Below, in pieces: positions 4,947 through 21,082 of a stretch of DNA of 39,462 nt. The stretch's first letter is position 1, and every line of letters starts with the position of its first letter. Where the stretch lies: the NCBI GenBank assembly GCA_039932125.1, contig JBDTQP010000001.1:1-39462 (forward strand). The letters are read 5' to 3'. A model generated the notes under the pieces. It was not told the origin of the DNA and searched no databases. It saw nothing but the letters and a program-made list of their open reading frames with translations. A program made the translations under genes and the position numbers. The DNA comes from Gemmatimonadota bacterium (GTDB lineage Bacteria; Gemmatimonadota; Gemmatimonadetes; Gemmatimonadales; GWC2-71-9).

Positions 4947-6412
4947 CGGAACACCAGGTCGGTGAAGGCATACTGCCCGGCGCGCTCGATGTGGACTCTG
5001 ATCGGCTGACGCTGAGGCGCGGTGCTGAAAATCTGCCCCACATCCTCGGCCCGCCGGATCATTGTGCGATTCACGGCTAGAATCACATCGCCGCTACGAA
5101 GGCCGGTTGCCTGGGCGATCTGCGACGTGATCCGGAAGATGAGCGCTCCCTGGTCACTCCGAAGTCCCCGTTCGGCCCGGACGCCAGGCGTCACGGTGAT
5201 GAGATCAATACCGCGAAGAACGCTGACCTTCTCCGAGGTGACCGTGGGCAGGTCGCCGGTCACAATGAGACGATCCGTGACCGTACTCCCCTGGCGCAGT
5301 CGCAGGCGCACGGAATCGCCGACGTGCAGATCCAGCTTCACGGCTTCCCAGTCGAGAAAGTTACGCAGCTTCCGGCCGTTCGCCTCGACGAGCACGTCTC
5401 GCGGATTGATCTGCGCCCGAGCCGCTGGACCGCCTGGCGCTACGCTGACCACCACCACACCGCCCTGGGCTTTCCAGTCGGCCATACTCTCCGCGCCCGC
5501 CACCTCGAGTCCAACCCACGCCCGCCGTACCTCTCCGTTGCGCACGATCTCATCGGCGACTCGCATGGCGCGCTCGATCGGAATGGCAAAGCCGAGTCCC
5601 ACGGAGCCACCCGTCGACGAGAAAATCGACGAGTTCACTCCGATGATCTCACCCAGGCTGTTCGCCAGCGGCCCGCCGGAGTTTCCAGGATTGATCGCCG
5701 CGTCGGTCTGGATCATGTCGAGATACAAACCAGCCTGGTCGCGGGTGGGGAGAATGTTACGGCCGCTGGCGCTGATGACGCCCGCCGTTACCGTCGGCTC
5801 GGAGTTGCCGAGGAGGAATGCGAATGGATTGCCGAGAGCGACAACCCACTCGCCGATGAGCAGGTCGCGGCTTCGCCCGATCCGGGCCGTTGGAAGACCA
5901 GCGCGCTCTACCTTGAGCACCGCGATGTCAGTGATGGGATCTTCGCCGAGCACCCTGGCGGGGAGGTCCGTGCCATCGCGCAGGGTGACGATCACCCGCT
6001 CGGCACCGGCGACGACGTGCTGGTTCGTGATGATCACCCCATCCGCGCGGATGATGAATCCGGTGCCGCCAACCGGGACCAGCTGCTCCTGGGTCTGCGG
6101 GATGAAGAAGTCGAACATCGACGGCGTTTCGACCTGTCGGCGCGTCATCGCGTTGATGCTGACCACGGAGGGACCAACCTGGCTTGCGGCGTCTACGATT
6201 GCCGTACGGCGGGAAGTATCGAGAGCGGCGTTGCGTTCAGCAGTCTGGGTGGCCGCATCGGCCCGCAGAACAAACCCCGCATCCTTCGGCCCACTCTTGC
6301 AGGCGCTCGCGAACAGCAGAAGCAGGGCCGGGAGGATCCGCAGTCGTTCGACGAAATGGCCTGCCAGCTGCTCGTGTCTGTTCACGTGACCTCGTGCGGG
6401 TCGATGAAGCAC
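4943..6412 (-). CDS. htrA: HtrA/DegP-family periplasmic serine protease with two PDZ-like C-terminal regions
   Basis: Catalytic triad context: TNQHVV (His), DIAVLKV (Asp), GNSGGPL (Ser). N-terminal hydrophobic signal ends in LLLFASAC, a possible lipobox. The start is uncertain because it overlaps the truA 3' end by 31 nt. Confidence 0.85.
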   Translation of the reverse strand: MLHRPARGHVNRHEQLAGHFVERLRILPALLLLFASACKSGPKDAGFVLRADAATQTAERNAALDTSRRTAIVDAASQVGPSVVSINAMTRRQVETPSMFDFFIPQTQEQLVPVGGTGFIIRADGVIITNQHVVAGAERVIVTLRDGTDLPARVLGEDPITDIAVLKVERAGLPTARIGRSRDLLIGEWVVALGNPFAFLLGNSEPTVTAGVISASGRNILPTRDQAGLYLDMIQTDAAINPGNSGGPLANSLGEIIGVNSSIFSSTGGSVGLGFAIPIERAMRVADEIVRNGEVRRAWVGLEVAGAESMADWKAQGGVVVVSVAPGGPAARAQINPRDVLVEANGRKLRNFLDWEAVKLDLHVGDSVRLRLRQGSTVTDRLIVTGDLPTVTSEKVSVLRGIDLITVTPGVRAERGLRSDQGALIFRITSQIAQATGLRSGDVILAVNRTMIRRAEDVGQIFSTAPQRQPIRVHIERAGQYAFTDLVFR

Positions 6413-7164
6413 GCCTTCGGATACTCGGCGGCAATGAAGTAGAGTCCCTCTGGAGGGGCGGGAGGACTCGTTCCATTGTTGTCCGATCGGGCCAGCAGCA
6501 CTTGCATATCGGCAACCGGCCTTCGTCCCAGGCCGATATCGACCATGGTCCCGACGAGAAATCGCACCATGTGATGCAGGAACCGGTCGGCTTCAATTTC
6601 GAAGCGAACGCCGGCGCCGTCGGGCCGATCGGTCCAGCGCGCGACGCGCACATCACAACGGTAATGCGGCTTGGCCTCGCCCTTCGCGGCGAAGGCGCGA
6701 AAATCGTGAAGACCAGTCAGTGCTCCCGCGGCTTCGGCGAGGGCCTCGCGATCGAGCGCGCGACCGAGAGACCATTCGTATGGATGACGGAAAGGCGATG
6801 CCGATGCTTCATCCGTCCCGATCAGAAAATGATAACGCCGGGCCAGCGCGCTCTTGCGAGCATGGAAGCCCAGCATCATTTCGTGCATACGTTCGATCCA
6901 GCAGTCCTCGGGAAGCAGCGCATTGAGCGCGCGTCGCAGGGGTTCGCTGGTCCATCTGGCCGGAAGCGTGAGGCTTACCCCCATTCCCCTGGCATGCACG
7001 CCGGCGTCCGTCCGTCCCGCCGCGAACACTGGAACCCGCGATCCACACAAGCGCTCGAGCACCGTTTCAAACTCGCCCTGGATTGATCGTCCGACTTTCT
7101 GGCGCTGCCATCCCACGAAATCGCTTCCATTGAACTGAAGTATCGCGAGAAATGTTCGGCTCAC
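6382..7164 (-). CDS. truA: tRNA pseudouridine(38-40) synthase
   Basis: 260 aa with a GTG start at 7162-7164. Contains the TruA catalytic motif AGRTDAGVHA and the N-terminal FNGSDFVGWQRQ. Confidence 0.9.
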   Translation of the reverse strand: MSRTFLAILQFNGSDFVGWQRQKVGRSIQGEFETVLERLCGSRVPVFAAGRTDAGVHARGMGVSLTLPARWTSEPLRRALNALLPEDCWIERMHEMMLGFHARKSALARRYHFLIGTDEASASPFRHPYEWSLGRALDREALAEAAGALTGLHDFRAFAAKGEAKPHYRCDVRVARWTDRPDGAGVRFEIEADRFLHHMVRFLVGTMVDIGLGRRPVADMQVLLARSDNNGTSPPAPPEGLYFIAAEYPKACFIDPHEVT

Positions 7165-7446
7165 GGGCGCAATCTAGCCCGGTTGATGGTCGCATTCAAG
7201 CCACGCAAACCATTGATTGCTCAGACATTAGAGGCGTCAATCGAGGAGCCACGATCGGCCGGCAACGGTCACTCCTGGAGGTCCTTCCGGGAGGGCCAGT
7301 ATCGACATTCGAGCATGTCGTGCCTCTGTCATTCGGATCACCACATCGCCCTGATTCCATTATCTTCGGACATCCCTTTCACGTGCATGCCAGGCCGGTG
7401 AGCCTTGGAATCCTCACTCCCTGCTCAACGCCCGCCATCAGGTTCT

Positions 7447-8499
7447 ATGACGTCGCAGGTACCTTCATCAGCCTTGTCGGAAGCTATTCGCATTCTGGCC
7501 GGAGGCCGTTCACTTTCCCGGGCAGAATCTCGAGGCGCTTTTGATGTGCTGATGGAAGGAAAGGCCGACCCCTCGGAGGTGGAGTCGCTGCTGATAGGTC
7601 TCCGGGCCCGGGGTGAGAACGCCGACGAGGTAGCGGGCGCGGTAGACTCGCTCCGTGCGGTGATGATCACCGTCGATGCCGTACAGGACCGGCTGGTCGA
7701 TACCTGCGGGACGGGAGGGGGCGGAACGCCCACCTTTAACATCTCCTCGGCCGCAAGTTTCGTTGCGGCCGGAGCCGGTGTGCGGATCGCGAAGCATGGC
7801 AATCGGAGTCACACCACCCGTTCCGGGTCAGCGGATCTGTTCGAAGCCCTGGGCATCGACATTGGCCTGGGTCCGGAAGAGGCGAAGAAGGTTCTCGCAT
7901 CTGTCGGCCTCGTTTTCCTGTATGCTCCTCATTATCACCCTGCCATGCGTCACGTGGCACCCATTCGAAAGAAGCTTGGTGTCTCCACGATCATGAATCT
8001 TGTCGGGCCGGTGGCCAACCCCGCCCACGTCGAGCGGCAGGTCATGGGCGTGTTCGAGAACTCCCGTGGGCCGGTCGTCGCTGAGGCACTGCGGCAGCTG
8101 AATCGAAAGCATGCGCTTGTCATGCACGCCCGGGCCGGGATGGATGAGATCAGTCCCGCGGGTGAAACCGAGGTGTGGGAAGTCAGGTCCGACCAGGTCA
8201 CGACCTGGATGCTGGACCCGAAAACTCTGGGACTCGAGTGTGCGGACCTGACCGCGCTCGCCGGCGGCAGCCCAGCTGAGAATGCGATTCGTACGGAACG
8301 GCTCCTGATGGGTGATGCGGGTGACGAAGCGGGCAGGTGCGCGGTGCTGCTCAATGCCGCGGCTGCGATCTATGTCTCGGAAGATGGCTTGTCGCTCGAG
8401 ATGGCGGCCGAACGGGCCAGGGACTCTCTGGCGAGTGGCGCCGCCGGCCGGGTACTGCTGGACCTGCGTCGTGCTGCGCCAGCGGGCTTGCCAGGATAG
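7447..8499 (+). CDS. trpD: Anthranilate phosphoribosyltransferase
   Basis: Carries DTCGTGGGGTPTFNISSAASFVAAGAGVRIAKHGNRS, the glycine-rich PRPP loop with KHGN. Start placed at ATG 7447 (MTSQVPSSALSEAIRIL). The ORF-track TTG at 7405 is the alternative. Confidence 0.9.
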   Translation: MTSQVPSSALSEAIRILAGGRSLSRAESRGAFDVLMEGKADPSEVESLLIGLRARGENADEVAGAVDSLRAVMITVDAVQDRLVDTCGTGGGGTPTFNISSAASFVAAGAGVRIAKHGNRSHTTRSGSADLFEALGIDIGLGPEEAKKVLASVGLVFLYAPHYHPAMRHVAPIRKKLGVSTIMNLVGPVANPAHVERQVMGVFENSRGPVVAEALRQLNRKHALVMHARAGMDEISPAGETEVWEVRSDQVTTWMLDPKTLGLECADLTALAGGSPAENAIRTERLLMGDAGDEAGRCAVLLNAAAAIYVSEDGLSLEMAAERARDSLASGAAGRVLLDLRRAAPAGLPG

Positions 8500-8514
8500 T
8501 GATCGCGCTGGCGC

Positions 8515-9123
8515 TCAGTATTTCCGGATGACACCAACCACGACACCCTGGATGAGGACATCCCTTTCCTGAAAACGCATGGGTTGCATCGTTTCGTTGG
8601 CTGGCTGGAGGCGGATCCACCCACCGGGTTCACGATAAAACTTCTTAACGGTTGCTTCACTACCGTTCACCAGGGCGATAACCATTTCGCCATTTTCGGC
8701 CGAATTACGGCCATGCACGACAACATAGTCTCCATCGATGATATGCTCGTCGACCATCGAGGTTCCCTGCACCTTGAGGGCATAGTTAGGCCCGCGTCGC
8801 GGCAGGAGCTGATCGGGAACCGACAGCGTCTCCTCGTGCATGAGCGATTCTATGGGAGTACCGGCCGCGACCTTTCCGAGGATAGGAATCTCGGTGGCCC
8901 CCGACTGTCCCCGTGGGGGGAGAACCTCAATGGACCGGCTCTCGTTGTGGGTGCGGTGGATGTATCCCTTCCGCTCCAGGTTGGTGAGATGCTCGTGTAC
9001 CGTGGCCAGCGACTGAAATTCGAAGTGTTCAGCGATTTCCTCGAAGCTGGGCGCATACCCGTTGTCGGCGATATACGTCTGCAGATATATCAGAATTTCG
9101 CTTTGCCGTTTGGTGAGAGGCAT
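8515..9123 (-). CDS. lexA: LexA repressor (SOS regulator, S24 peptidase)
   Basis: Winged-helix N-terminus (MPLTKRQSEILIYLQ...YAPSFEEIA), Ala-Gly cleavage site in GKVAAGTPIE, catalytic Ser in VQGTSM and Lys in ATVKKFY. Start refined to ATG 9121-9123, preceded by GGAGA. The 26-codon upstream extension in the ORF track is rejected. Confidence 0.9.
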   Translation of the reverse strand: MPLTKRQSEILIYLQTYIADNGYAPSFEEIAEHFEFQSLATVHEHLTNLERKGYIHRTHNESRSIEVLPPRGQSGATEIPILGKVAAGTPIESLMHEETLSVPDQLLPRRGPNYALKVQGTSMVDEHIIDGDYVVVHGRNSAENGEMVIALVNGSEATVKKFYREPGGWIRLQPANETMQPMRFQERDVLIQGVVVGVIRKY

Positions 9124-9143
9124 AGATCCGTCTCCGGGGTTGA

Positions 9144-9185
9144 CCGAATGGAAGCCGAAGCATATTACCCGAATGGCCACCGAAG
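9144..9185. promoter_or_regulatory. Two 17-nt direct repeats (CCGAATGG-N3-CCGAAG), candidate LexA operator pair in the lexA/trpC divergent region
   Basis: Copy 1 is 9144-9160 (ccgaatggaagccgaag) and copy 2 is 9169-9185 (ccgaatggccaccgaag), identical at 14 of 17 positions. Each holds two CGAA half-sites 11 bp apart (CGAA-N7-CGAA). No other comparable repeat was seen in the 71-bp intergenic region. Confidence 0.35.
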
Positions 9186-9190
9186 AGCAA
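9162..9190 (-). promoter_or_regulatory. Putative sigma70-type lexA promoter: -35 TTGCTC, 17-nt spacer, -10 TAATAT
   Basis: The minus strand reads TTGCTC (9190-9185), TTCGGTGGCCATTCGGG, TAATAT (9167-9162). This predicts a 5' UTR of about 30 nt with GGAGA before the ATG. Repeat copy 2 fills the spacer and copy 1 covers the predicted start site. Confidence 0.35.
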
Positions 9191-9194
9191 GGGG

Positions 9195-9983
9195 ATGACA
9201 CAGCCGACGCTCGACACCATCCTCGAGGAAACCCGACAACGGCTTCCTTTACTACGGGAATGCCGGGAACAGTTCGAAGAGGCCGCCGCCCACCGGCCTT
9301 CTCCTTCTTCTTTCCGCCGCGCCCTACTCGGTCCCACTCTGGGGTTGATCGCCGAGATCAAGCGTCGTTCGCCTTCCGCCGGTCGGATCGCGGACCTCGA
9401 TCCGGTTACCCATGCGCGTGCGTATGCTGATGGTGGGGCGAGTGCGATTTCGGTGCTTACGAATGAGCCCTTTTTCGGAGGATCCCTTGCCGATCTCACC
9501 CAGGTAAGCCGGGCGGTTCCAACTCCGCTGCTCAGGAAGGATTTCATTCTCGACGAGATTCAGATTCTCGAAGCTCGATCCGCGGGAGCAGCCGCCGTGC
9601 TTCTCATCGTTCGAGCCCTGAGCGGCGGGTTGCTCGCCCGGCTCATCGAAAAGACTCGCGAGATCGGCTTGGAGCCGCTGGTCGAAGTGCACACGGAAAC
9701 CGAAATTACTATGGCGTTGGAAGCGGGAGCCGATATACTTGGAGTGAATAGCCGCGACCTCCATACATTTACCATCGATACGCCCAGGGCGTGGAGCCTC
9801 TTTCCACTGATACCGGCGCATTGTGTCGCGATTGCCGAGAGCGGCATGTCCACAGTAGGCGATGTAACCGTAGCGGCCGTAGCCGGTGCCGATGCTGTTC
9901 TCGTCGGCACCGCGCTGTCGCGTCTGGCCGATCCGGGTGCCCTCGTTCGCCAGATTCGCCAGGTAGTGCGTCGTGGCCGCTAG
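9195..9983 (+). CDS. trpC: Indole-3-glycerol phosphate synthase
   Basis: 262 aa with ATG at 9195. Contains IAEIKRRSPSAG, ISVLTNEPFFGGS and GVNSRDL, typical of the IGPS TIM barrel. Confidence 0.9.
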   Translation: MTQPTLDTILEETRQRLPLLRECREQFEEAAAHRPSPSSFRRALLGPTLGLIAEIKRRSPSAGRIADLDPVTHARAYADGGASAISVLTNEPFFGGSLADLTQVSRAVPTPLLRKDFILDEIQILEARSAGAAAVLLIVRALSGGLLARLIEKTREIGLEPLVEVHTETEITMALEAGADILGVNSRDLHTFTIDTPRAWSLFPLIPAHCVAIAESGMSTVGDVTVAAVAGADAVLVGTALSRLADPGALVRQIRQVVRRGR

Positions 9984-10617
9984 CATAAAAATCTGCGGGC
10001 TCACCCAGCCCGACGATGCGGCGATTGCCGCTGGCGCCGGCGCATCATACCTCGGTGTGGTGTTTGCCAGGAGTCCACGCAGAGTCACCGCGAGTGTTGC
10101 CGAAAGCATCGTGGTTGCTGCCCGTGGTATTCCTGTCATTGGTGTGTTTGGCGGCCAGCAGGTATTCGAAATTCTACGCGTGTGCGCCGAACTCGGGCTG
10201 GCCGGAGCTCAATTGCATACGCCGTATCCCGTCTCTGTCGCCCGCCGTTTGCGCGATGCGGGTCTGCTCGTCTGGCGGGTCGGCCGGCTGGCCTTTCCGG
10301 AGGACCTTGACGGGATTGCTCTGCTCCGCGAAAGCTCGAGTGCCGTCCTGGTCGAGGCCCGCGTCCCTGATGCCTTGGGAGGAACGGGAGTATCGTTACC
10401 TTTAGACCTGGCCCGCGAGGCGCGCGCGCGCCTTCCCGGTCATCAGATGGTTCTGGCAGGCGGACTCACGGCGGAAATCGTCGCGGAAGCCATTGAAGCA
10501 GTACACCCGGACATTGTCGATGTAAGCAGCGGCGTCGAGCTCCGCCCCGGCGTCAAGGACCCTGATAGAATCATGAAGTTTATTGAGGCAGTGCTTGGTC
10601 ATCAGCCTTCCCGCTGA
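9973..10617 (+). CDS. trpF: Phosphoribosylanthranilate isomerase
   Basis: 214 aa with a GTG start that overlaps trpC by 11 nt. Has the N-terminal IKICGLT motif, C-terminal DVSSGVE and trp context. Confidence 0.85.
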
Positions 10618-11797
10618 ACGTTCCGACGCGGGCCGATTCGGCGCATACGGCGGACGGTACGTCCCCGAGACGCTGATCGCGGCACTGGATGAGCTGGCCG
10701 CTCTCTATGACAGTGTGCGAGCGGATGCCGCGTTCTGGAATGAGTATCATGACATTCTGGCCTCATTTGTGGGACGGCCTTCACCACTCACCGAGGCGGC
10801 GGGCCTCAGTGAATATCTCGGCTGCCGACTCTTCCTCAAACGGGAAGATCTGAACCATACTGGCGCGCACAAGATCAACAATACGGTGGGCCAGGCTCTT
10901 CTTGCCCGTCGCATGGGGAAAAAGCGAATCATTGCCGAGACGGGGGCGGGGCAGCATGGCGTCGCGACGGCGACGATCTGCGCGCGATTCGGCCTGGAAT
11001 GCGTGGTGTACATGGGCGCCGAGGATACCGAGCGCCAGCGGCTCAATGTGTTTCGGATGCAGTTGCTCGGTGCGAGGGTGGTTCCTGTCGAATCTGGCAC
11101 TCGCACGCTCAAGGATGCGACCAATGAAGCGTTGCGTGACTGGGTCACCAATGTTCCGACGACCCATTACATCATCGGCTCCGTTGTAGGTCCTGATCCC
11201 TACCCCCGCATGGTGCGGGATTTTCAATCGGTGATTGGAACCGAAGCACGGGCCCAGGTTCTGGCTCGCACAGGTCGCTTACCGGACGTGGTCACGGCAT
11301 GCGTGGGTGGCGGCTCAAATGCGATTGGACTCTTCGCGGCCTTCCTCGACGACCCCGGCGTTGATCTCGTGGGTGTTGAAGCGGCCGGTCACGGCCTCGG
11401 CACCGGCGCTCACAGCGCGTCGCTGACCGCCGGGTCGCCCGGTGTGCTGCACGGCTCGCTCAGTTACCTGCTGCAGGACGAAGATGGCCAGGTCCTGCCG
11501 GCTCACTCGGTCTCCGCGGGACTCGACTATCCTGGCGTTGGACCTGAACACAGCTTCCTCAAAGATTCCGGACGAGTCCGCTATGAAGCCGTGACCGACA
11601 GCGAAGCCCTGACCGCATTTCAGCGGGTCTGCCGCCTGGAGGGGATTATTCCCGCTCTGGAAACTGCGCACGCCTTTGCCTGGCTGGAGCGGGTACGCGG
11701 CAGCTGGAACAGGGACGCTGTGGTGCTGCTAGGTCTGAGCGGCCGGGGGGACAAAGATGTCGAACAGGTCGCGACAATGCTCGGGGGCGTCCGGTGA
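10583..11797 (+). CDS. trpB: Tryptophan synthase beta chain
   Basis: [15 protein letters not shown], the PLP-lysine motif HTGAHKINN and [11 protein letters not shown] start at 10583 or 10595, overlapping the trpF 3' end. Confidence 0.92.
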
Positions 11798-13515
11798 GTG
11801 AGCCGACTATGAGCCCCACGGTTCTTCCGACGGTCCAGGTCGAGGAGCTGATCAAGACCATGGTCAAGGCGCTTCGCGCCTTTCAGATGTATCTGCCGAA
11901 CAATCCGATTTATCAGAAGGCGCACAGCAACATCATGAACGCGTTCAAGCCAGTATGGGAGAGCGTTGATGAGCTGGTGCTGTCTATCGTGGAGACAGAC
12001 TTCGTCTGGGAGGAGCTGGTCGTTTACCACCAGCCCGGCAAGAATGAGAGCATGGCCTGGACGTTGTACAAGGATGGCATGCGCGTGCTCACGTTCAAGC
12101 CTGGCGCTGAGAGGGTGGAGGTTGCCCGCTTCCTGGAGGTCGTGCAGAAGGCCCGGCTGCTCACGGCGGACGCCGATGATGATCTCAACACCCTGCTCTG
12201 GGAGATGCAGTTCGAACACATCGAATACCGCTTCACCGAGTTTCTCACCGACGCCGCATTGCTGGAATACACCGGCGAGCACGGTACCGGGCCCGCGCCC
12301 GAGGTGGTCCAGGAGCAGGTGAAGGAAGAAGTCACCGAGGCGAAATCCACGACGGAGGAAACACCGGGCCGGACCGGAATCGTCGATATGGAGGATTTCG
12401 ACTCGACCCTCTACTTCCTCGATGAAGCCGAGATCGCCTACATGGTGAGTGCCCTGGAAAAGGAATACCAGCAGGATTTCCGGAGCTCAACGCTGTACAT
12501 CCTGCTGGATCTGCTGGAGCTCCAGACCGACGACGCCGTCCGGGCCGAGCTGTTCGGCATCCTCGAGACGCTCATGCCGAACCTGCTCAATGCCGGGGAG
12601 TTCCGGTCGGTGGCCGTGATCCTCCGCGAGGTGCGGGTGATCGGTGAGCGAGCCAAGGGACTCACCGACGAGCAGCGGAAACGTCTCGACAATTTCCGGA
12701 GCCAGTTGAGTGCACCGACTGTGCTGACCCAGCTGCTCCAGGCGGTGGATGAAGCGACGGCCGCGCCTTCCGCCGATGACCTCGGCGAGCTGTTCCGGGA
12801 GCTGCGTCCTTCCTCTCTGGAGACCATTCTCGTCTGGTTGCCTCGGCTCAATTCGCCAACCATCCGCGAGCTCCTTGTCGAGGCCTCCGAGCGTCTCGCC
12901 GATGGGAGCCCCGGCGAGATTCTCCGTCTCCTGGGGCTTTCCGATTCAGAAGCGCTGGCGGGAACGATCGATCTCTGCGGACGGCTCAAGCTTCAGGGGT
13001 CGGTTCCCGGTCTGGGCTTCACCGTCAAGCACACCGAGCGGGACATCCGGCTGGCGAGCGTCAAGGCGCTGGTGGAGATCGGGACCGCGGGGGCGATGGG
13101 AACGATCGAGGGTGTACTGGATGATGCCGACCGCGAAGTCCGGATTACCGCCGTGCGCTCCCTGGGCAACCGGGGGTACAAGAACGCGCTCAAGCGAATT
13201 CAGAACGCGGTACTGAATCGGGGACTCAAGGGCGCGGACCTCACCGAACGAATTGCCTTTTTTGAAGCGTACGCCCTGATCGCTGGTACTGCCTCACTGG
13301 ATCCGCTGGCCCGGATTCTCATTCCGGGCGGGATGTTCCAACGGAAGGAGACGGCCGAGAGCCGCGCGTGCGCGGCCATAGCACTCAGTCGCCTGGGCAC
13401 GCCGGAAGCCCGGGACGTGCTGCAGCAGGTCGCCAGTGACAAGGATCTCGTCGTCCGGAACGCGGTGAATCGCGCTCTTCGAGAATCCACCAGCATTCGA
13501 GGCCCCGGACGATGA
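11794..13515 (+). CDS. HEAT-repeat protein with an N-terminal domain homologous to the N-terminus of the downstream HD-GYP protein; function unknown
   Basis: 573 aa. The C-terminal third has PBS-lyase/HEAT-like repeats ([44 protein letters not shown]) and there is an acidic central linker. GTG 11794 overlaps the trpB TGA (GTGA); ATG 11809 is the alternative start. The codon bias is GC3-rich like its neighbours. Confidence 0.7.
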
Positions 13516-15002
13516 ACGATCAGCATCGTCTCTCTTCCCGCGCCCAGGTCCCGGAAGGGGTGCCGCGGGCGAGCAGCGGGGAAGGCGCGCTCCGGCACAG
13601 CGGGCGGCAATTTCTTCTCGCGCTGTATACCGGGCTTCGCAGTCTCAAGCTTTACCCCATTGAGAATGCCACCGCGCAGAAAGCGCTTGATGACCTGCAG
13701 TCCGCCGCGGTGAGCCTGCTCGCGAGCGAGGAGGAGATCGAGCTTCGGATCTCGGGCGATTTCCTTTTCATCAACGCGACCCGTCTCCGGCTCGAGCTCG
13801 AGAACTACGCATCGTTCAGTTATATCCTGGCCACCTTTGCGTCGTTCGACATCGGAACCCTGCACGTCCGTCAGGGAGTCGAACGGCGGGAGTGGCAGAT
13901 CTTTGTCGGTCTTCTCCTCAACCTCGCGAGCATGGAGGAGAGTCCCGATAAGCTGATGACCCTGAGCGAGCGCCTGCAGAACGCCGCGGTGAGTCATATC
14001 GAGGTTGAACCCACCGTCGAGACGCAGGAACAGCTGGACGAGATAGAACGGGCCAAGGAGCTGGCGAAGCGCACCTACTCCCAGGGCGTGGCCGTCACAA
14101 AAGAGGTCGTCAACAGTGTTCGCATGGGCCGGACCGCGAGCATAAAGAAGGTGAAACGCGCGGTGCAGGCTATCGTCGACCAGGTGCTCAATAACGAGAC
14201 CTCCCTGATGGGGCTGACAACGATTCGTGATTACGACGAATATACGTTTACCCACTCGGTCAACGTCTGCATCTTTTCCGTCGCTCTTGGCCGTCGCGTG
14301 GGATTTACCCGGCTACAGCTCTACGATCTTGGGCTCGCGGCACTGATGCACGACATCGGCAAGGCGCGAATCCCCATCGAGATTCTCAACAAGACGAGCG
14401 GTCTCGACGAGAAAGAGTGGTTTGTCATCCAGGCCCATCCCTGGCTTGGCGCACTGACACTCTTCGAAATGCGCGGCTACAGCGAGATTCCCTATCGCTC
14501 GATTGTCGTGGCGCATGAGCATCATATGAAGATCGACCTCACCGGATACCCCCGGGTGGTGCGGGAACGCGAGCTGGGCCTCTTCTCGCGCATCGTGGCG
14601 GTGGCGGACGGGTTCGATGCGGCCACCACGCGCCGGTCCTACCAGAGCGTGCCGATTCAGCCCGACGAAGTGTTGCGGGAAATGTGGGAGAACCCGCGGC
14701 GCGGCTATGATCATGTCATCGTGAAAGCGCTCATCAATCTCATCGGTGTCTACCCGGTCGGGACCTGCGTCATCCTGGACACCTTTGAAGTCGCGGTTGT
14801 GTCGGCGGCGAATCCGGATCCGCAGTTTCTCAATCGGCCCCTCGTCAAGCTCGTCATCGATGCGAACGGCGCGGTCATTCCTCCACCGTCGCACGGGTAC
14901 AATCTGGCCGAGCAGGACGGGAGCGGCGCGTTCCTCCGTTCGATCGTAAAAGTCACCAATCCGGATCGCTATGGGCTCACGGTCGGCGACTATTTCGTCT
15001 GA
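13512..15002 (+). CDS. HD-GYP domain protein (putative c-di-GMP phosphodiesterase or sensor) with a divergent HHxxxDxxGYP motif
   Basis: 496 aa. Contains HSVNV...LMHDIGKARIP (HD), then AHEHHMKIDLTGYPRV (GYP) and ADGFDA. The ATG overlaps the upstream stop as ATGA (13512-13515). Confidence 0.85.
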   Translation: MNDQHRLSSRAQVPEGVPRASSGEGALRHSGRQFLLALYTGLRSLKLYPIENATAQKALDDLQSAAVSLLASEEEIELRISGDFLFINATRLRLELENYASFSYILATFASFDIGTLHVRQGVERREWQIFVGLLLNLASMEESPDKLMTLSERLQNAAVSHIEVEPTVETQEQLDEIERAKELAKRTYSQGVAVTKEVVNSVRMGRTASIKKVKRAVQAIVDQVLNNETSLMGLTTIRDYDEYTFTHSVNVCIFSVALGRRVGFTRLQLYDLGLAALMHDIGKARIPIEILNKTSGLDEKEWFVIQAHPWLGALTLFEMRGYSEIPYRSIVVAHEHHMKIDLTGYPRVVRERELGLFSRIVAVADGFDAATTRRSYQSVPIQPDEVLREMWENPRRGYDHVIVKALINLIGVYPVGTCVILDTFEVAVVSAANPDPQFLNRPLVKLVIDANGAVIPPPSHGYNLAEQDGSGAFLRSIVKVTNPDRYGLTVGDYFV

Positions 15003-15786
15003 TCCGTCGCTGACCTCCGCATGGGCGGATCTCCGGCAGCGGGGACGCACCGCTCTCATTCCCTATTGCACGGCGGGATACCCGGATTATGACGCGAGCC
15101 GCGACATGCTGCAGGCCGCTGATGAGTACGCGGACATCATCGAGGTGGGCGTCCCCTTCAGCGACCCGCTGGCCGATGGTCCAACTATTCAGCGCTCCAT
15201 CCATTCTGCGCTGGCGAAGGGGATGACCCTGCCGCGGACCCTCGAGCTGATCGAGCAGTCCAGGATGCAACACCCGGTCGTCGTCTTCAGCTATCTCAAT
15301 CCCATTCTCCACTACGGTCTCACCCGTTTTCTGCGCGATGCCTCGGCAATCGGTGTCGCCGGAGTGCTGTTGACCGATCTCCCCGCCGGCGCCGACAGCG
15401 CAATTGAATCGGAGCTTGGCGCAAGCTCGCTCGATCTCATTCGCCTGGTTGCTCCCACGACCAGCGATGCTCGGCTCAGGGAAACGGTGCGCGATGCCCG
15501 GGGTTTCATCTACCTCATTGCACGACTTGGCGTGACGGGAACGACTGCGGGTATCGATAACGGGCTCGCCGGGTCGGTCCACCGTGTGCGCGCCGCGACG
15601 TCTCTTCCGGTCGCGGTTGGATTCGGCATCGCCGACCCGGGGCAGGCGGCGCAGGTGGCCGGGCTGGCCGATGGCGTCGTCGTTGGAAGCGCGCTCGTGG
15701 AACAACTGGCGACCAGTGTCGAAGCCGGCCGGGTCCTGTTGCATGACCTGCGTGTTGCGCTCGACCGGGCGGACGGGTCCCGATGA
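14971..15786 (+). CDS. trpA: Tryptophan synthase alpha chain
   Basis: [30 protein letters not shown] and GVTG motifs. ATG 14971 overlaps the HD-GYP 3' end by 32 nt, and I saw no in-frame ATG/GTG/TTG just downstream. Confidence 0.9.
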
Positions 15787-17858
15787 ACGTTCGAACCATT
15801 CTCGAGTGGTACGCGAGGCTCCTGGTGATCGTCGGCATTTCGGTCACCCTGGCGACGGTTTCCACGGATCTCCGGTGGTCGCAACACCCGATGCTGACCC
15901 TGCTCCTTCTGGGCATGGTCATCATCCTTCGCGGCGGTCAGATCTCGCTCACGAAGTATGCGTACCTGACCCAGATCGGTGTGCCGGCCCTGCTCGGTGG
16001 CATGGTGGCCGGCCCCGGCACCGTGGCCCTCGTCCTTGGCCTTGGTGTATTTGGATCCGATCTGCTCTGGGTTCGCAAGAATACCTTCGCCTCGCTGGTC
16101 AATGCGAGCCGGGAAGTCATCGCATTCATCGCGGCCTTTGGACTCTACGCCGGGGTGCTGCAGGTTACCCGTCCCTCCCACCTCTCGCTCGATTACCTGC
16201 CGGCGGCCGTCACCCTGCTCGCGATGTACTTTTTTCTCTCGCGCGCCATGTTCTACTTCACGCTGCTCTTCCGGGACAAGCTGGAGAGCGACGAGAAGCT
16301 GGTCATCCTGCGTTACGAGCTGCTCACTTATCTGCTGACGGCGAGCGCGGTATTCGTGGTGGTTGGCGCCATGGCCACGCTGTCCACAGTGGGATGGTTT
16401 ACGGTTCTCGTGGTGGTGAGCGTCATCGGACTACTGACCAAAAAGATCCTGGAAGACGCTATTGGCGCCGAAGAGCTGAACAAGGTCCACGTTCGTGAAA
16501 AGGTGATCGCAGGAAACCTGAGCCTGCAGGACAGCTTCGCGGAAATGGAGCGCCTTGCGCACCGGCTGCTGGACTGGGGAGACATGCGGGTGTACCGGAT
16601 TGCCGGGTCCGGCGCATCGCTGATATATCGCGGCGTTTACGGCCGGGACACGAGATCCGAACCACTCTACGATGCCGAAGCCCTCCGGGCTGAGGTGCTG
16701 CGGACCGCACAGGCGCTGGTGATCCAGGACTCGTCCAAGGACCCCCGCATCACCACTCCCGATCCCCATGCCCGAAGCATTCTCATCGCTCCGCTCAAAC
16801 TGGGCGACGAGATGATCGGAACCCTGGAGCTGGAGCACCACAAGCGCCACGCGTACCGTCCGCGCGACATGGAAGCGGTGATCACCTTCGCGGGGCAGCT
16901 CGCCACCGCGATACACATCGCCGACCTGCGGCAGCCGCTGGTGGAGACGGTGGAACGCATCGGCCGGCAGGTAGAGAATTTCGGGCGTCACGCTGAGATG
17001 CTTCGGCAAACCACTCTGATCGTTGCCGCGGCTTCGCAATCCATCCGGGACGGAATGGCCGAGCAGGGAAGCGTGGTCAAGACTGGCCTGGAAACCACAA
17101 CCTCGCTCGCGGTCGCTGTCGGGGATATGGCCAGTGAAGGCGCCCAGGCAGTCAAGGCGGCCGAGAACGCGAGTGAGATTGCCGCCAACAGCCAGGTCAC
17201 CATCGGCGATGCCGTCCAACGACTCGTGCAGCTGAAAGGCGTGGTGGCGGACAGCAGCCAGCAGGTGGATGAACTCGGCAGGATCACGGGAAGAATCAAC
17301 GAATTTATTGGCTCGATCCGGGAAATTGCCGACCTCACGAACCTGATAGCGCTGAACGCCGCGATCGAGGCTGCCCGGGCGGGCAAGCAGGGGCAGGGCT
17401 TTGCTGTGGTCGCGGATGAGGTGCGCCATCTCGCCGCCCAGAGTGCCGGGGCCTCGCGCGAAGCGGCGATGTTGCTGGAGTTGATCGGGACGCAGGTCGC
17501 GAGCGTCGCTGCACTGATGCAGCGCGGCCAGCAGGTGGTCATGGGCGTCGAAGATCTGAGCGCGGCCGCGGGACGCGCGCTGACGGCCATCGTCCAGTCT
17601 ACCAAAGATGCCGGGCTGCACGGGCGCCGCATCGCCACCACTGCCGCCAGCCAGCAGCGGGCCTTCGACCAGCTTCGCTCCCAGATCGACAAGATCGCGG
17701 CCGTTGCCTGGCGCACACTGGAAGAAGCCAACGAAATGGCGAGCCGCGCGTCACAGGCCACATCGGGGCACGCCGAGATGGAACAGGCGATCCGTGATCT
17801 CGGCGCTGTCGCGAGTCACCTGCAGGATATTGCCAGGACCTTCGCGGTCGAGGGGTAG
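15783..17858 (+). CDS. Polytopic membrane (about 7-8 TM) GAF-domain methyl-accepting chemotaxis-type transducer
   Basis: 691 aa. The N-terminal ~220 aa hold 7-8 hydrophobic helices with only short loops. A GAF-like region follows ([10 protein letters not shown]...[17 protein letters not shown]). The C-terminal part has the MCP hairpin-tip signature [40 protein letters not shown]. The ATG overlaps the trpA TGA (ATGA, 15783-15786). Confidence 0.85.
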
Positions 17859-17860
17859 TT

Positions 17861-18301
17861 TTGTCGAGCGAGCGAGCGTACCTGGCCCTGGGCAGCAACC
17901 TTGGCGACCGCTCAGGTTTTCTGAGCCTCGCGCGGAATGAGTTGAGCCGGTTGCCATCCTCCCGCATTGTAGCGTTCTCTTCCATTGAAGAAACCGCGCC
18001 GCTCGGCGGCCTGGACCAGCCCGGGTATCTCAACCAGATGGTTCTCCTGGAGACGGCGCTCGAGCCCCGCGCACTGCTGGCGGCCTGCCGCTCAATCGAA
18101 CGTTCCGCGGGACGGGATCGTACCGAACGCTGGGGTTCCCGCACTCTGGACATCGACATCGTTCGCTACGGTAGGATCGTGATGGCCGGACCTGAGCTGA
18201 CGATTCCTCACCCGGGTCTCGGGAACCGTGAATTCTGGCAGCGCGAAATCGCCGAGATCGGTCGCGTGATGGCGCAGCAGGAAGGCCGGTCGCCAGTGTA
18301 G
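17861..18301 (+). CDS. folK: 2-amino-4-hydroxy-6-hydroxymethyldihydropteridine pyrophosphokinase (HPPK)
   Basis: 146 aa. TTG start 2 nt after the MCP stop, preceded by GAGGGG. Contains AYLALGSNLGDR, RWGSRTLDIDIV, LTIPHP and REF. Confidence 0.85.
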   Translation: MSSERAYLALGSNLGDRSGFLSLARNELSRLPSSRIVAFSSIEETAPLGGLDQPGYLNQMVLLETALEPRALLAACRSIERSAGRDRTERWGSRTLDIDIVRYGRIVMAGPELTIPHPGLGNREFWQREIAEIGRVMAQQEGRSPV

Positions 18302-18365: not shown

Positions 18366-19175
18366 ATGACGGAAAAGCGACCCCGGTCGATTCTCGATCT
18401 GATCACGATGAAACGCGAAGGCAGGAAGATCGTGGTCCTGACGGCATACGATGCGCTCTTCGCCCGGCTGCTGGTGCAGGCGGAAGTAGACGTTCTGCTG
18501 GTTGGGGATTCGGTGAACCAGGTCGTCGCGGGGGCGGACACGACGCTGAGTGCCACGCTCGACCAGATGATCTATCATGGAAAGGCGGTATGCCGCGGGA
18601 GTGGCGAGGCGCTGGTTTTCATCGATCTTCCTTTTCTGACGTACCAGGTGTCCATCCCTGATGCGATTCGAAACGCCGGCCGGGTGATGCAGGAGACGGG
18701 AGCGCAGGGCGTAAAGCTGGAGGGTGGCGCTCACATGGCCCCGACCGTCCGGGCGCTGGTCGAGGTGGGAATTCCCGTGATGGGACACGTGGGTCTTACC
18801 CCGCAATCCGTGCATGCGCTCGGCGGTTATCGCGTTCAGGGCCGCGAACCCAAGGCTGCCGAGCGCATGCTGGAAGACACGAGAGCGCTGGAAACCGCGG
18901 GGGCATGCGCGATCGTCCTCGAACTGGTGCCCGCGCCACTTTCAGCCCGCATCAGTGCCGCGCTGACGGTGCCCACCATTGGCATCGGAGCAGGCGCCGG
19001 ATGCGATGGACAGGTCCTGGTCACTCCAGACATGCTGGGACTGAATGACACCTTCAGTCCCAAATTCCTGAAACACTATGCTCGCATGGCGGAGGACGTG
19101 CGTCAGGCGGCTCGATCTTTCGCGGCCGACGTTCGAAACGGCACCTATCCCGGAAACGAACACAGTTTTGATTGA
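18366..19175 (+). CDS. panB: 3-methyl-2-oxobutanoate hydroxymethyltransferase
   Basis: VVLTAYDA, LLVGDS, VKLEGG and GIPVMGHVGLTPQS motifs. Confidence 0.9.
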   Translation: MTEKRPRSILDLITMKREGRKIVVLTAYDALFARLLVQAEVDVLLVGDSVNQVVAGADTTLSATLDQMIYHGKAVCRGSGEALVFIDLPFLTYQVSIPDAIRNAGRVMQETGAQGVKLEGGAHMAPTVRALVEVGIPVMGHVGLTPQSVHALGGYRVQGREPKAAERMLEDTRALETAGACAIVLELVPAPLSARISAALTVPTIGIGAGAGCDGQVLVTPDMLGLNDTFSPKFLKHYARMAEDVRQAARSFAADVRNGTYPGNEHSFD

Positions 19176-19180
19176 GAGTC

Positions 19181-20035
19181 ATGGAAGAATTCACCTCGCC
19201 TGACCAGCTTCGGGCCTGGGTCAGGGCACGAAGAGACGAGGGCCAGCGGATTGGATTTGTCCCCACGATGGGCTTCCTCCACGAAGGACATCTGTCGCTC
19301 GTCACCGCAGCCAGGCAGCGGGGGGAAGCCATCGTCATGAGCATCTTCGTCAACCCGCTACAGTTCGGGCCCAACGAAGACCTGTCCCGCTATCCTCGTG
19401 ACCTGGAGCGGGATCGCGCGCTCGCGCAGCGTTCCGGCGTGGATGCGCTGTTCGTTCCCTCTGTCGAAACGATGTATCCCCACGGTTCGGAAACCCGCAT
19501 CATCCCGGGTGAAACCGCGTCGCGGTGGGAAGGCGCGGCGCGGCCCGGACATTTTGCGGGCGTGCTCACGGTCGTGGCCAAGCTGTTCAACCTGGTGGTT
19601 CCCGATGTCGTGTGCTTCGGACAGAAAGACATGCAGCAGGCGCTGCTCATCCGGCGGATGCTTCGGGACCTTGACTGGCCCATCGATTTCGTGATTGTAC
19701 CGACGGTGCGCGAGGCCGATGGATTGGCACTCAGCAGTCGCAACGTCTATCTCAAGAATGGTGCGCGTGAGCAGGCGCTCTCGCTGAGTCGCGCGCTGGC
19801 AAAGGCCGCGGAGTGCTGGCTGGCGGGTGAGAAGAGTGCCTCCCGAATCCGGAGTGCCATGGAAAGCGTGTTCCACATGTTTCCCGCTATCGGCGTAGAG
19901 TATATTGCGATCGCCGAACCTGAATCCATGCAACCGGTCGACACGGTCGACGCCTGGACGGTTGTTGCGGTGGCCGCCCGGGTCGGTACGACTCGCCTGA
20001 TCGACAATATCGTTCTAGGCCAGGGAGTCCGATGA
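19181..20035 (+). CDS. panC: Pantoate--beta-alanine ligase
   Basis: IGFVPTMGFLHEGHLSL (HxGH-type nucleotidyltransferase motif), FVNPLQFGPNED and FGQKD. ATG 19181 chosen; a TTG at 19172 overlapping the panB stop is the alternative. Confidence 0.9.
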   Translation: MEEFTSPDQLRAWVRARRDEGQRIGFVPTMGFLHEGHLSLVTAARQRGEAIVMSIFVNPLQFGPNEDLSRYPRDLERDRALAQRSGVDALFVPSVETMYPHGSETRIIPGETASRWEGAARPGHFAGVLTVVAKLFNLVVPDVVCFGQKDMQQALLIRRMLRDLDWPIDFVIVPTVREADGLALSSRNVYLKNGAREQALSLSRALAKAAECWLAGEKSASRIRSAMESVFHMFPAIGVEYIAIAEPESMQPVDTVDAWTVVAVAARVGTTRLIDNIVLGQGVR

Positions 20036-20165
20036 TCACTCGAGCAACCCTGCTGGCGCTCTGCACTCGCTCCACTCAGCGGCCCGGGCATTGAGCACCG
20101 GCGAGCCGCGGCAACCCAGACCCACACCGCCGGAACTCCGGCCAACGATTCCCGGGTGGGCCATC

Positions 20166-20693
20166 ATGACCGCCGAGCGGGTGGCGCATGTGCATCGCGT
20201 CGCGCTGCTCATTTCGGACTGGGCGGAAGAGCTCGGTGTTCCTGACTCTGAACGGAACCGGTGGTTGCGGGCGGCCTGGCTGCATGACGCCCTTCGTGAC
20301 GCCACGGAAGAAGACCTGGTGCGCTGGGCGCCTTCGTCGACCGGACCAGTAGAGCTCCGGCACGGGCCGGCAAGCGCGGCCCGCGCCAAGGGTGAGGGAG
20401 AGGTGGATCGCGGTGTTCTCGATGCCGTGCGGTACCACTCGGTGGGGCTGGCTGAATGGGATATGGTCGGCCGGATTCTTTACTGCGCGGATTACCTCGA
20501 GCCTGGCCGCGCGTTTGACGTGGAGCCTCGTGCTGAACTTGCCGCCCGGCTTCCCCGCGATCTTACCGGCGTGCTCCACGAAGTTGCTCGCCGGCGGCTG
20601 CTGCGACTGGTAGAAAACGCCTGGACCATCCCCGAACCTACGTATCGCTTCTGGAACAAACTGTGCGCTCGCGAATCGCGCGTATCGGGCTGA
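20166..20693 (+). CDS. YqeK-family HD-domain phosphohydrolase (putative Ap4A hydrolase)
   Basis: Collinear with Bacillus YqeK as recalled from memory: HVHRV, WLHDALR (HD), VLDAVRYHSVG and ILYCADYLEPGRAF. Start uncertain: ATG 20166 is preferred over TTG 20091, whose extension is Pro/Arg-rich. Confidence 0.7.
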   Translation: MTAERVAHVHRVALLISDWAEELGVPDSERNRWLRAAWLHDALRDATEEDLVRWAPSSTGPVELRHGPASAARAKGEGEVDRGVLDAVRYHSVGLAEWDMVGRILYCADYLEPGRAFDVEPRAELAARLPRDLTGVLHEVARRRLLRLVENAWTIPEPTYRFWNKLCARESRVSG

Positions 20694-21082
20694 TTGCCGC
20701 TGGTGCTCTTCTCCTCGTGACTGGAGTTGTGCTCGCCGCTCGTCTCAAGCGCGACCAGGTGCCCGGACACGCCTACGCTGTTCCTTCGGCTGACAATCGG
20801 ATCATCATTGAAGTCATGAACGGCACCGGCCGGCAGGGGCTGGGGAGAACTGTCACCAGGATCCTGCGGCAGCAGGGACTGGACGTTGTCCTCTTCGGCA
20901 ACGCCGACAGCACCGATTCCACTCGCATCGTGGTTCGCCGGGGAGACCGCAAGGCCGCCGAAACGGTGGCCAGAGCACTGGGGACGGGACAGGTGATCGA
21001 GCAGATCGATACGCTTCGGCGGGTTGATGTCAGCGTCATACTCGGATATGACTACAAGCCCGCAGGTGAGATCCATCCCTGA
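20663..21082 (+). CDS. Membrane-anchored LytR_C (LytR/CpsA/Psr C-terminal) domain protein
   Basis: 139 aa with a GTG start. One N-terminal TM helix (IGLIAAGALLLVTGVVLAA) followed by IIIEVMNGTGRQGLG...VDVSVILGYDY, typical of LytR_C. Confidence 0.65.
   Translation: MRSRIARIGLIAAGALLLVTGVVLAARLKRDQVPGHAYAVPSADNRIIIEVMNGTGRQGLGRTVTRILRQQGLDVVLFGNADSTDSTRIVVRRGDRKAAETVARALGTGQVIEQIDTLRRVDVSVILGYDYKPAGEIHP

Follow-up and report, generated by a model that had tools for sequence, protein, structure and literature searches.

A HEAT-repeat and HD-GYP gene pair that separates trpB from trpA in Gemmatimonadota occurs as an autonomous cassette in other phyla

The stretch of DNA analysed here, referred to as the window, spans positions 1 to 39,462 of contig JBDTQP010000001.1 of a Gemmatimonadota bacterium (order Gemmatimonadales; assembly GCA_039932125.1) and contains a tryptophan locus in which trpB and trpA, the genes encoding the beta and alpha subunits of tryptophan synthase, are not adjacent. 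Two large genes, encoding a HEAT-repeat protein and a predicted HD-GYP phosphodiesterase, occupy the 3,173 nt between the trpB stop and the trpA start (11798-14970), so that the canonical trpB-trpA adjacency is broken. A third signalling gene, encoding a seven-transmembrane (7TM) methyl-accepting chemotaxis protein (MCP) with a GAF domain, follows trpA. These genes belong to a co-directional string, trpC-trpF-trpB-HEAT-HD-GYP-trpA-MCP-folK-panB-panC-HD2-LytR_C, which starts next to lexA (Table 1). The trpB stop overlaps the HEAT start as GTGA (11794-11797), the HEAT stop overlaps the HD-GYP start as ATGA (13512-13515), and the trpA stop overlaps the MCP start as ATGA (15783-15786). The trpA ATG (14971) lies 32 nt within the 3' end of the HD-GYP gene (15002), and a gap of 2 nt separates the MCP stop (17858) from the folK start. 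Each open reading frame (ORF), coordinate and overlap from trpB to folK given in a preliminary description of this DNA, made from the sequence alone, was confirmed by ORF listing and direct reading, and the identities assigned there to TrpB, the HEAT, HD-GYP and GAF-MCP proteins, TrpA and FolK were upheld by Pfam and NCBIfam. According to TIGR00263, the window TrpB is of the TrpB1 type, the TrpA-binding class, and it scores only 166.7 bits against the TrpB2 model.

Two gene calls deserve comment. The 204-aa plus-strand ORF located between trpD and trpC (8584-9198) has no family match and is a shadow of the minus-strand lexA gene; consequently, the co-directional string begins at trpC, and trpD is set apart from it by lexA, which is convergent with the one and divergent from the other. 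The NCBI annotation of the HEAT protein, 568 aa in length, implies a start at ATG 11809. Since relatives keep a GTGA, an ATGA or an abutting start, and many of them have no ATG near the trpB stop, where the NCBI-style start would fall, the overlapping GTG is the better start.

Table 1. Genes and other features of the trp locus and its surroundings in the window.
Feature	Position	Strand	Evidence and remarks
lexA	8515..9123 (~9123 end)	-	Pfam LexA_DNA_bind + Peptidase_S24; divergent from trpC
CCGAA direct-repeat array	9144..9184	+	Four copies (two CCGAA-N6-CCGAA pairs); conserved in ~65 loci
trpC (indole-3-glycerol phosphate synthase)	9195..9983	+	Pfam IGPS 240 bits; NCBIfam NF001377 261.2 bits (cutoff 260)
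trpF (phosphoribosylanthranilate isomerase)	9973..10617	+	Pfam PRAI
trpB (tryptophan synthase beta, TrpB1 type)	10583..11797	+	TIGR00263 618.9 bits (cutoff 392.45)
HEAT protein, 573 aa	11794..13515	+	Pfam HEAT_2 55.3 bits
HEAT-protein N-domain	11830..12234	+	Paralogous to the HD-GYP-protein N-domain
HD-GYP phosphodiesterase (predicted), 496 aa	13512..15002	+	Pfam HD_5 63.2 bits
trpA (tryptophan synthase alpha)	14971..15786	+	TIGR00262 219.8 bits (cutoff 102.35)
7TM-GAF-MCP receptor, 691 aa	15783..17858	+	Pfam GAF + MCPsignal
folK (HPPK)	17861..18301	+	TTG start 17861; TIGR01498 117.8 bits (cutoff 54.1)
panB	18366-19175	+	Pfam Pantoate_transf
panC	19172-20035	+	Pfam Pantoate_ligase
HD2, small HD-domain protein	20091-20693	+	Pfam HD
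LytR_C protein	20663-21082	+	Pfam LytR_C

A scan of GTDB species representatives returned 363 stretches encoding a relative, the best 80 of which were kept, all from Gemmatimonadota; gene order was judged by tblastn synteny in the loci that were long enough. Nearly all judgeable loci feature the order purB(-) htrA(-) truA(-) trpD lexA(-) trpC trpF trpB HEAT HD trpA MCP folK panB panC HD2, and trpB-HEAT-HD-GYP-trpA-MCP-folK recurs in ~70 species-level Gemmatimonadales genomes. Context look-ups for HEAT homologs at 54-62% identity gave the identical order. In nearly all related loci, the gene immediately before trpC, or before HEAT, is the minus-strand lexA. In the deep Gemmatimonadota loci L087 and L090, the order is trpCFB-HEAT-HD-trpA, without the MCP gene. 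The preliminary description had left open whether the insertion is peculiar to this genome; it is kept across Gemmatimonadales and deeper Gemmatimonadota, down to ~42% HD-GYP identity among the genomes sampled.

The overlaps seen in the window correspond to conserved spacing in relatives. trpB and HEAT overlap by 4 nt in 58 of 74 loci, and the HEAT start abuts the trpB stop in 13 others; a GTGA or ATGA at the trpB stop was counted in 58 of 73 loci. Overlaps of 4 nt are also found between HEAT and HD-GYP (76/82 loci), trpA and MCP (45/64) and MCP and folK (40/66), and HD-GYP and trpA overlap by 8 to 32 nt in 71 of 72 loci. The preliminary description had read these junctions as overlaps of the translational-coupling type. 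However, htrA and purB, which are unrelated neighbours, overlap by 4 nt in 43 of 48 loci, and truA and htrA overlap in 52 of 53. In the window, the functionally unrelated purC, purB, htrA and truA genes (2590-7164, minus strand) overlap one another. Genes in these genomes are joined by start/stop overlap by default, and such overlap, being equally common between unrelated neighbours, is by itself no evidence of a functional device. Internal promoters or terminators, which might have uncoupled the genes, were sought by simple scans that, for this phylum, are informative only in revealing no obvious internal signals. They found 2 sigma-70 promoter-like sites against 2.9 expected, which is no excess, and 12 intrinsic-terminator-like sites against 9.0 expected, which is the background level. 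Co-transcription from trpC to folK is therefore plausible.

Outside Gemmatimonadota, the two inserted genes travel together. An exhaustive search with the HD-GYP protein against 1.84 billion representatives, with clusters defined at 50% identity, yielded 2,122 clusters at E <= 1e-30, many of them full length (~485 aa) at identities as low as 31%. Named members of the family come from Zixibacteria, Myxococcota, Deltaproteobacteria, Longimicrobiales, Thermoleophilia and other Actinomycetota. In nine of nine divergent contexts, a HEAT gene (552-590 aa) is located immediately upstream of the HD-GYP gene, overlapping or abutting it, and the flanks are unrelated and differ from locus to locus. Along their full length, the HEAT proteins of the outgroups are homologous to the window protein (E = 2e-22 to 1e-107). 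In a metagenome scan centred on outgroups, for which a 3-sequence alignment was used, a HEAT-family gene precedes all 44 full-length HD-GYP family members that have enough upstream sequence (37 by a strict filter and 7 on inspection), but none of 16 generic HD-GYP-only controls. The pair is present in Zixibacteria-like, Myxococcota, Deltaproteobacteria and Actinomycetota contigs. The core unit is thus the HEAT + HD-GYP gene pair, not the trp genes, and its occurrence in several other phyla as an autonomous cassette, with no trp genes beside it, weakens the view that it is a Trp-linked module.

A Pfam census of 147 flanking proteins in 47 dereplicated non-Gemmatimonadota loci identified mainly TatC (7), Chorismate_bind + Anth_synt_I_N (6), Rrf2 (6) and PAS kinases (5). 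In one outgroup clade (L105, L109, L114, L115, L118, L124 and L149), a same-strand TatC-family gene is found two genes upstream of the cassette, separated from HEAT by a small ORF (~90 aa); this different neighbourhood is conserved and has no obvious link to Trp. In the Myxococcota locus L086, the cassette is preceded by a divergent gene for a diadenylate cyclase (DAC; 5245-6132, minus strand), and a 759-aa protein with no Pfam match is encoded 2 nt after the cassette.

Gemmatimonadota themselves also include cassettes without trp genes. At least five Gemmatimonadales loci with complete flanks (L078, L007, L006, L046 and L069; L007 is on the same contig as L001) have no trpD, trpC, trpB or trpA at the locus, which reads purB htrA truA lexA HEAT HD MCP folK and onward. 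The HEAT, HD-GYP and MCP genes are full length in all five, and HD-GYP and MCP are brought next to each other, at spacings of -17 to 76 nt. Only L006 retains a full-length trpF. This locus (8476-9961) is the closest trp-less relative, with a HEAT protein 75% identical to that of the window, and its lexA gene is inverted onto the plus strand. In a neighbour-joining (NJ) tree of HEAT and HD-GYP sequences, the trp-less loci are polyphyletic and scattered among trp-bearing relatives, which implies that the locus lost its trp genes at least four times independently. Moreover, the deep Gemmatimonadota locus L089 consists of lexA followed by HEAT-HD-HD2-LytR_C, with no trp genes in the locus, and in L088, also from Gemmatimonadota, a HEAT-HD pair without trp genes in the locus is found at an unrelated place. 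The trp genes are dispensable at this locus. Together with the autonomy of the cassette, their repeated loss contradicts the idea that the cassette must be tied to tryptophan synthase, whether functionally or physically.

The AlphaFold2 (AF2) model of the HEAT protein, with a mean predicted local distance difference test (pLDDT) score of 79.5, features an N-terminal alpha/beta domain (residues 13-147), a disordered linker (150-209) and an alpha-solenoid (210-567; pLDDT 85-95) made of tandem helical-hairpin repeats. A Foldseek search with this model retrieved only generic alphaRep/HEAT solenoids (E ~3e-6) and assigned no fold class to the N-domain. The HD-GYP protein is composed of an N-domain (24-167), a linker helix, a catalytic domain (~236-400) and a conserved C-terminal tail (401-496). 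Its Pfam matches are to HD_5 (63.2 bits, cutoff 27.2) and HD (45.1 bits, cutoff 22). The metal ligands H248, H280-D281, H309, H337-H338 and D366 and the G345-Y346-P347 motif align with those of PmGH and V-cGAP3, are invariant in a 21-sequence alignment and are conserved in at least 98% of 75 aligned sequences, across which the motifs HDIGK, HHMKIDLTGYP and ADGFDAATTRRSY are also conserved. Relatives in the PDB are V-cGAP3 (5z7c, E = 3e-23), PmGH (4mcw, E = 4e-17), PA4781 (4r8z) and Bd1817; the best, V-cGAP3, is specific for cyclic GMP-AMP (cGAMP). Its sequence places the protein firmly within the HD-GYP family. It is also the best conserved of the three signalling proteins: sequences are ~70% identical throughout the order, a value that rises to 80% for the catalytic domain. 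The window encodes a further HD-GYP protein 19 kb downstream (36865-37896, plus strand), which has 343 aa and the REC + HD_5 architecture of the classical RpfG type, and the genome thus has several HD-GYP enzymes.

The HEAT and HD-GYP proteins share a paralogous N-terminal domain of ~130 aa. An hhalign comparison of HEAT residues 16-144 with HD-GYP residues 31-164, based on diverse profiles, gave a probability of 97.7% (E = 1.4e-12, score 80.8, 129 columns), against a maximum score of 15.9 in 40 column shuffles; an earlier comparison of Gemmatimonadales-only profiles had been suggestive only (P = 0.0045). The HD-GYP hidden Markov model matches HEAT N-domains directly. In the AF2 models, in which the N-domain of the HD-GYP protein has a pLDDT of 80-90, both N-domains have the same alpha-alpha-beta-beta-beta-alpha-beta-alpha-alpha-beta topology. 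Scans of 14 diverse N-domains found no Pfam family, and an alignment profile search found no PDB sequence; the one match that appeared, to DUF3391, is weak (E = 0.039) and falls in the HD-GYP linker helix.

Hydropathy analysis of the MCP indicates ~7 transmembrane helices (residues 1-220) and no periplasmic domain, followed by the GAF domain (~240-385) and a signalling domain (MCPsignal, 105.5 bits, cutoff 34.6). The canonical hairpin tip (~525-534, in a 15-residue tip sequence at ~520-534) is 83% conserved, compared with ~50% for the remainder of the protein. A regular-expression search found no consensus methylation site ([ASTG][ASTG]xx[EQ][EQ]xx[ASTG][ASTG]), and the C-terminus (...FAVEG) has no CheR-binding pentapeptide; both are adaptation features that are not needed for membership of the MCP family. 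No che genes are found in the 39-kb window. The MCP gene is restricted to Gemmatimonadales loci: it is missing from L087, L089 and L090, which are deep Gemmatimonadota loci, as well as from all of the more than 50 outgroup cassettes. Neither the 436-aa GAF protein of L087 nor the 759-aa protein of L086, which were considered as counterparts of its 7TM-GAF region, is similar to it. The apparent loss of the MCP gene in L025 and L035 is explained by frameshifted long-read assemblies: in these Microflora Danica ("MFD") bins, frameshifts split MCP and many other genes (L025, 13975-16033; L035, throughout), and are probably sequencing errors rather than pseudogenes. This distribution is indicative of a later addition of the MCP gene on the Gemmatimonadales stem and does not fit the proposal that the receptor is an integral part of the module.

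The HD2 + LytR_C pair is found downstream of the cassette in every Gemmatimonadota context that was sampled. HD2 homologs (E = 1e-39) are located right after the cassette in L089 and after trpA in L087; the pair maps to 10275-11347 in L087 and, directly after HD-GYP, to 10491-11506 in L089. One member of the HD2 cluster is named YqeK-like by the Joint Genome Institute, and the 682-aa database entry P0421 is annotated as a fusion of an HD-GYP and a small HD protein.

The divergent lexA/trpC intergenic region (9124-9194) is 71 nt long and is almost filled by the CCGAA array, the two pairs of which can also be written as two GAAN-N7-GAAN pairs. The pair pattern has two matches in the window, both in this gap, against 0.13 expected, and 144 of its 151 occurrences in 1.6 Mb of loci fall within 150 nt of the lexA start. 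The array remains beside lexA in trp-less loci. It resembles the direct-repeat LexA box of alphaproteobacteria and is a candidate for a LexA operator or for a shared control region; the literature searched describes no LexA motif for this phylum. If the array is a LexA operator, the trpC-to-folK string would fall under SOS control.

With a confidence somewhat better than even, we interpret the locus as the product of an old two-gene HEAT/HD-GYP cassette that entered the trp operon, is held there by overlaps and has a function independent of its trp neighbours. Most likely, early in the history of Gemmatimonadota, a pre-existing cassette inserted into an ancestral trpCFBA operon; the MCP gene was gained later after trpA, and trp genes were repeatedly lost from the locus. 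This order of events is favoured by parsimony, given the deep loci and an outgroup-rooted NJ tree, which places the pair alone outside Gemmatimonadota, the trp-embedded state at the base of the phylum and the gain of MCP on the Gemmatimonadales stem. The cassette has probably stayed because every junction overlaps, so that essential neighbours would no longer be properly translated or expressed after any rearrangement. Its expression would be chained to that of the trp genes by a shared promoter region near lexA and by serial start/stop overlaps, while its function would need none of them. The HD-GYP protein is predicted to hydrolyse a cyclic dinucleotide, either cyclic di-GMP (c-di-GMP) or cGAMP, and the HEAT protein may be its dedicated scaffold or regulatory subunit. 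The partners are always co-encoded and share a private N-domain, and the simplest explanation is that they pair through it, possibly as a heterodimer. In Gemmatimonadales, the membrane GAF-MCP probably supplies sensory input or array localisation.

Several points weigh against this interpretation. The trees are NJ trees without support values and are indicative only. The polarity of the event, namely insertion of the cassette into trpBA as opposed to assembly of trp genes around the pair, rests on parsimony and is likewise indicative, and the proposed heterodimer rests on paralogy and strict gene pairing. The AF2 model of the HD-GYP protein is poor (mean pLDDT 54.8), with a badly modelled catalytic domain, and a fold search of this poor model against the PDB returned nothing significant. 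Finally, the picture of a frozen hitch-hiker explains neither the embedding of the cassette in an Actinomycetota-like trp cluster nor the TrpE/PabB-family gene that adjoins it in another clade.

The latter two placements bear on a rather unlikely alternative, in which the cassette is tied to Trp/chorismate-branch metabolism and its position between trpB and trpA is selected rather than accidental. The shared N-domains, or the GAF domain of the MCP, would sense anthranilate, indole, indole-3-glycerol phosphate, Trp, chorismate or para-aminobenzoate (pABA) and set phosphodiesterase activity, thereby coupling precursor supply to second-messenger state. The persistence of the embedding across the sampled Gemmatimonadota is in keeping with this. 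In addition, in L139, an Actinomycetota-like contig, trpF-HEAT-HD-GYP on one strand converges on trpE-trpG-trpD-trpC-trpA on the other. Among named sequences, the closest to it are from Thermoleophilia and other Actinomycetota, and it belongs to a separate deep clade on the cassette tree. In this region (3438-12265), the 3' ends of HD-GYP and trpA overlap by 73 nt and trpC runs straight into trpA; no trpB is present within the 13 kb available. However, trp genes do not adjoin the cassette in its clade-mates L140 and L141, which feature carboxylesterase and MFS genes instead.

The second placement concerns eight loci of a single clade (L093, L094, L097-L101 and L108), in which a TrpE/PabB-family gene lies divergently beside HEAT in a synteny that is conserved within the clade. 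This chorismate-binding enzyme scores just under the TrpE cutoff and about at the PabB-clade2 cutoff, and its gene is often paired with one for a class-IV aminotransferase of the PabC/IlvE type. In L093, L094, L099 and L101, an Rrf2 regulator gene is located downstream of the cassette, followed in L093 by an isc-type Fe-S operon. Folate genes are also found nearby, namely a downstream folK in Gemmatimonadales and folB-folK in L090.

Overall, three of ~7-18 independent clades have a Trp-pathway or TrpE/PabB neighbour, for a naive binomial P of ~4e-4 to 2e-2, an estimate that is post hoc, relies on a loosely defined category widened afterwards and ignores multiple testing; this enrichment is a lead, not a result. 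Against a metabolic tie, the cassette is intact in the five trp-less Gemmatimonadales loci and in L088 and L089, its neighbours in most outgroup clades are unrelated genes such as TatC, Rrf2/IscS, PAS kinases and carboxylesterase, overlapping junctions are commonplace in these genomes and no ligand-binding fold was recognised in the N-domain. Thus, of the Trp/indole-linked module suggested in the preliminary description, the obligatory tie is contradicted by cassette autonomy and trp loss, whereas L139 and the TrpE/PabB neighbours keep a looser link to chorismate-branch metabolism in view, at a probability that we consider low.

A more specific form of this link appears doubtful, namely that HEAT + HD-GYP is a hitherto unrecognised, widespread two-subunit cyclic-dinucleotide phosphodiesterase the duplicated N-domain of which senses an intermediate between chorismate and anthranilate, pABA or tryptophan, or else indole or Trp itself, in at least three lineages. 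If this were true, the Gemmatimonadota, Actinomycetota-like and TrpE/PabB-clade placements would all reflect the sensing function, and the supply of aromatic and folate precursors would be wired to second-messenger signalling in each of these lineages.

A further alternative, which we regard as improbable, is that MCP, HEAT and HD-GYP form one chemosensory unit, with the MCP as receptor, the pair as its dedicated output and the trp genes as passengers. The three genes co-occur in all long-enough Gemmatimonadales loci, including the trp-less ones, where HD-GYP and MCP are neighbours, and the hairpin tip is well conserved. However, the absence of the MCP from deep and outgroup loci, where no 7TM-GAF homolog lies beside the cassette (the L086 and L087 candidates having been compared), implies that the cassette works without it. 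Moreover, the canonical tip suggests ordinary CheA/CheW coupling rather than a private output, and che genes are missing from the window. Lastly, an artefact in which misassembly of a metagenome-assembled genome (MAG) or spurious ORFs split trpB and trpA can safely be dismissed: the window is a metagenome-assembled contig and some related long-read MAGs are frameshifted, but the same order with conserved spacing recurs in ~70 independent assemblies from different projects and technologies, which makes the layout neither chance nor misassembly, and each protein has a strong family match, with full-length homologs numbering in the hundreds.

Few bacterial gene pairs are as consistently adjacent and translationally coupled as trpB and trpA. 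In Gemmatimonadota, a distance of 3.2 kb between them is maintained throughout the phylum, presumably with the alpha2-beta2 enzyme still being made, and the split pair is a natural test case for stoichiometry maintained through serial coupling. The main value of the locus lies in the widespread and uncharacterised HEAT + HD-GYP module, with its new shared N-domain and a testable input hypothesis. The inputs of HD-GYP enzymes are poorly understood, and a complex of the two proteins, if formed, would represent a new regulatory architecture for these enzymes; the recurring trp and TrpE/PabB neighbours provide a concrete hypothesis for the signal.

The catalytic domain of the HD-GYP protein resembles those of RpfG, PmGH (4MCW), PA4781 (4R8Z), V-cGAP3 (5Z7C) and Bd1817 (3TM8), with E values of 1e-23 to 1e-8, and has all the His/Asp metal ligands and the GYP motif of known enzymes. 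Unlike these, it lacks a REC, GAF or DUF3391 sensor domain. In place of such a domain it has an undescribed N-domain, of which a second copy is found in the HEAT-solenoid protein that is obligatorily co-encoded with it. In the Wsp system, a chemosensory pathway leads from the MCP WspA to the diguanylate cyclase WspR and has c-di-GMP as its output. Similarly, the Gemmatimonadales locus encodes an MCP-family receptor together with an enzyme predicted to metabolise c-di-GMP. In contrast to Wsp, CheA, CheW and response-regulator genes are absent from the locus, the MCP is a late, lineage-specific addition, and the enzyme is a predicted phosphodiesterase without a REC domain. The locus also recalls "uber-operons", which are conserved gene strings of mixed function, in that unrelated housekeeping genes (pur, htrA, truA, trp, fol and pan) are kept in fixed order, with overlapping junctions, throughout the phylum. 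It differs from them in that it splits two genes that normally lie side by side under translational coupling.

Literature searches on Gemmatimonadetes trp operons and on HD-GYP proteins associated with HEAT proteins, with or without an MCP, gave nothing relevant. The layout had been thought to have no described precedent. This stands for the HEAT/HD-GYP pair and for the layout as such in the literature searched, but inserts between trpB and trpA are known. According to PMC2395257, which cites Xie et al. 2003, all known Burkholderia carry trpF-trpB-X-trpA, with a non-trp gene between trpB and trpA; the same position is filled in some Flavobacterium and in one Sargasso Sea contig, and it is debated whether the Burkholderia X gene is a "moron" or a helper gene (PMC2395257). 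As far as this account goes, the Gemmatimonadota insert is similar by position, since a same-strand, non-trp insert interrupts an otherwise intact trp sub-operon in a taxon-wide manner, and the "moron" versus helper debate applies to it as well. In contrast to the Burkholderia arrangement so described, the Gemmatimonadota insert consists of two large genes (3.2 kb) that form a signalling cassette independent of trp genes in other phyla, a third signalling gene follows trpA, and all junctions overlap. What is new here is that the insert is a two-gene signalling cassette of multi-phylum distribution with a private shared domain, that its placement is conserved at the level of the phylum, and that an MCP gene was added later.

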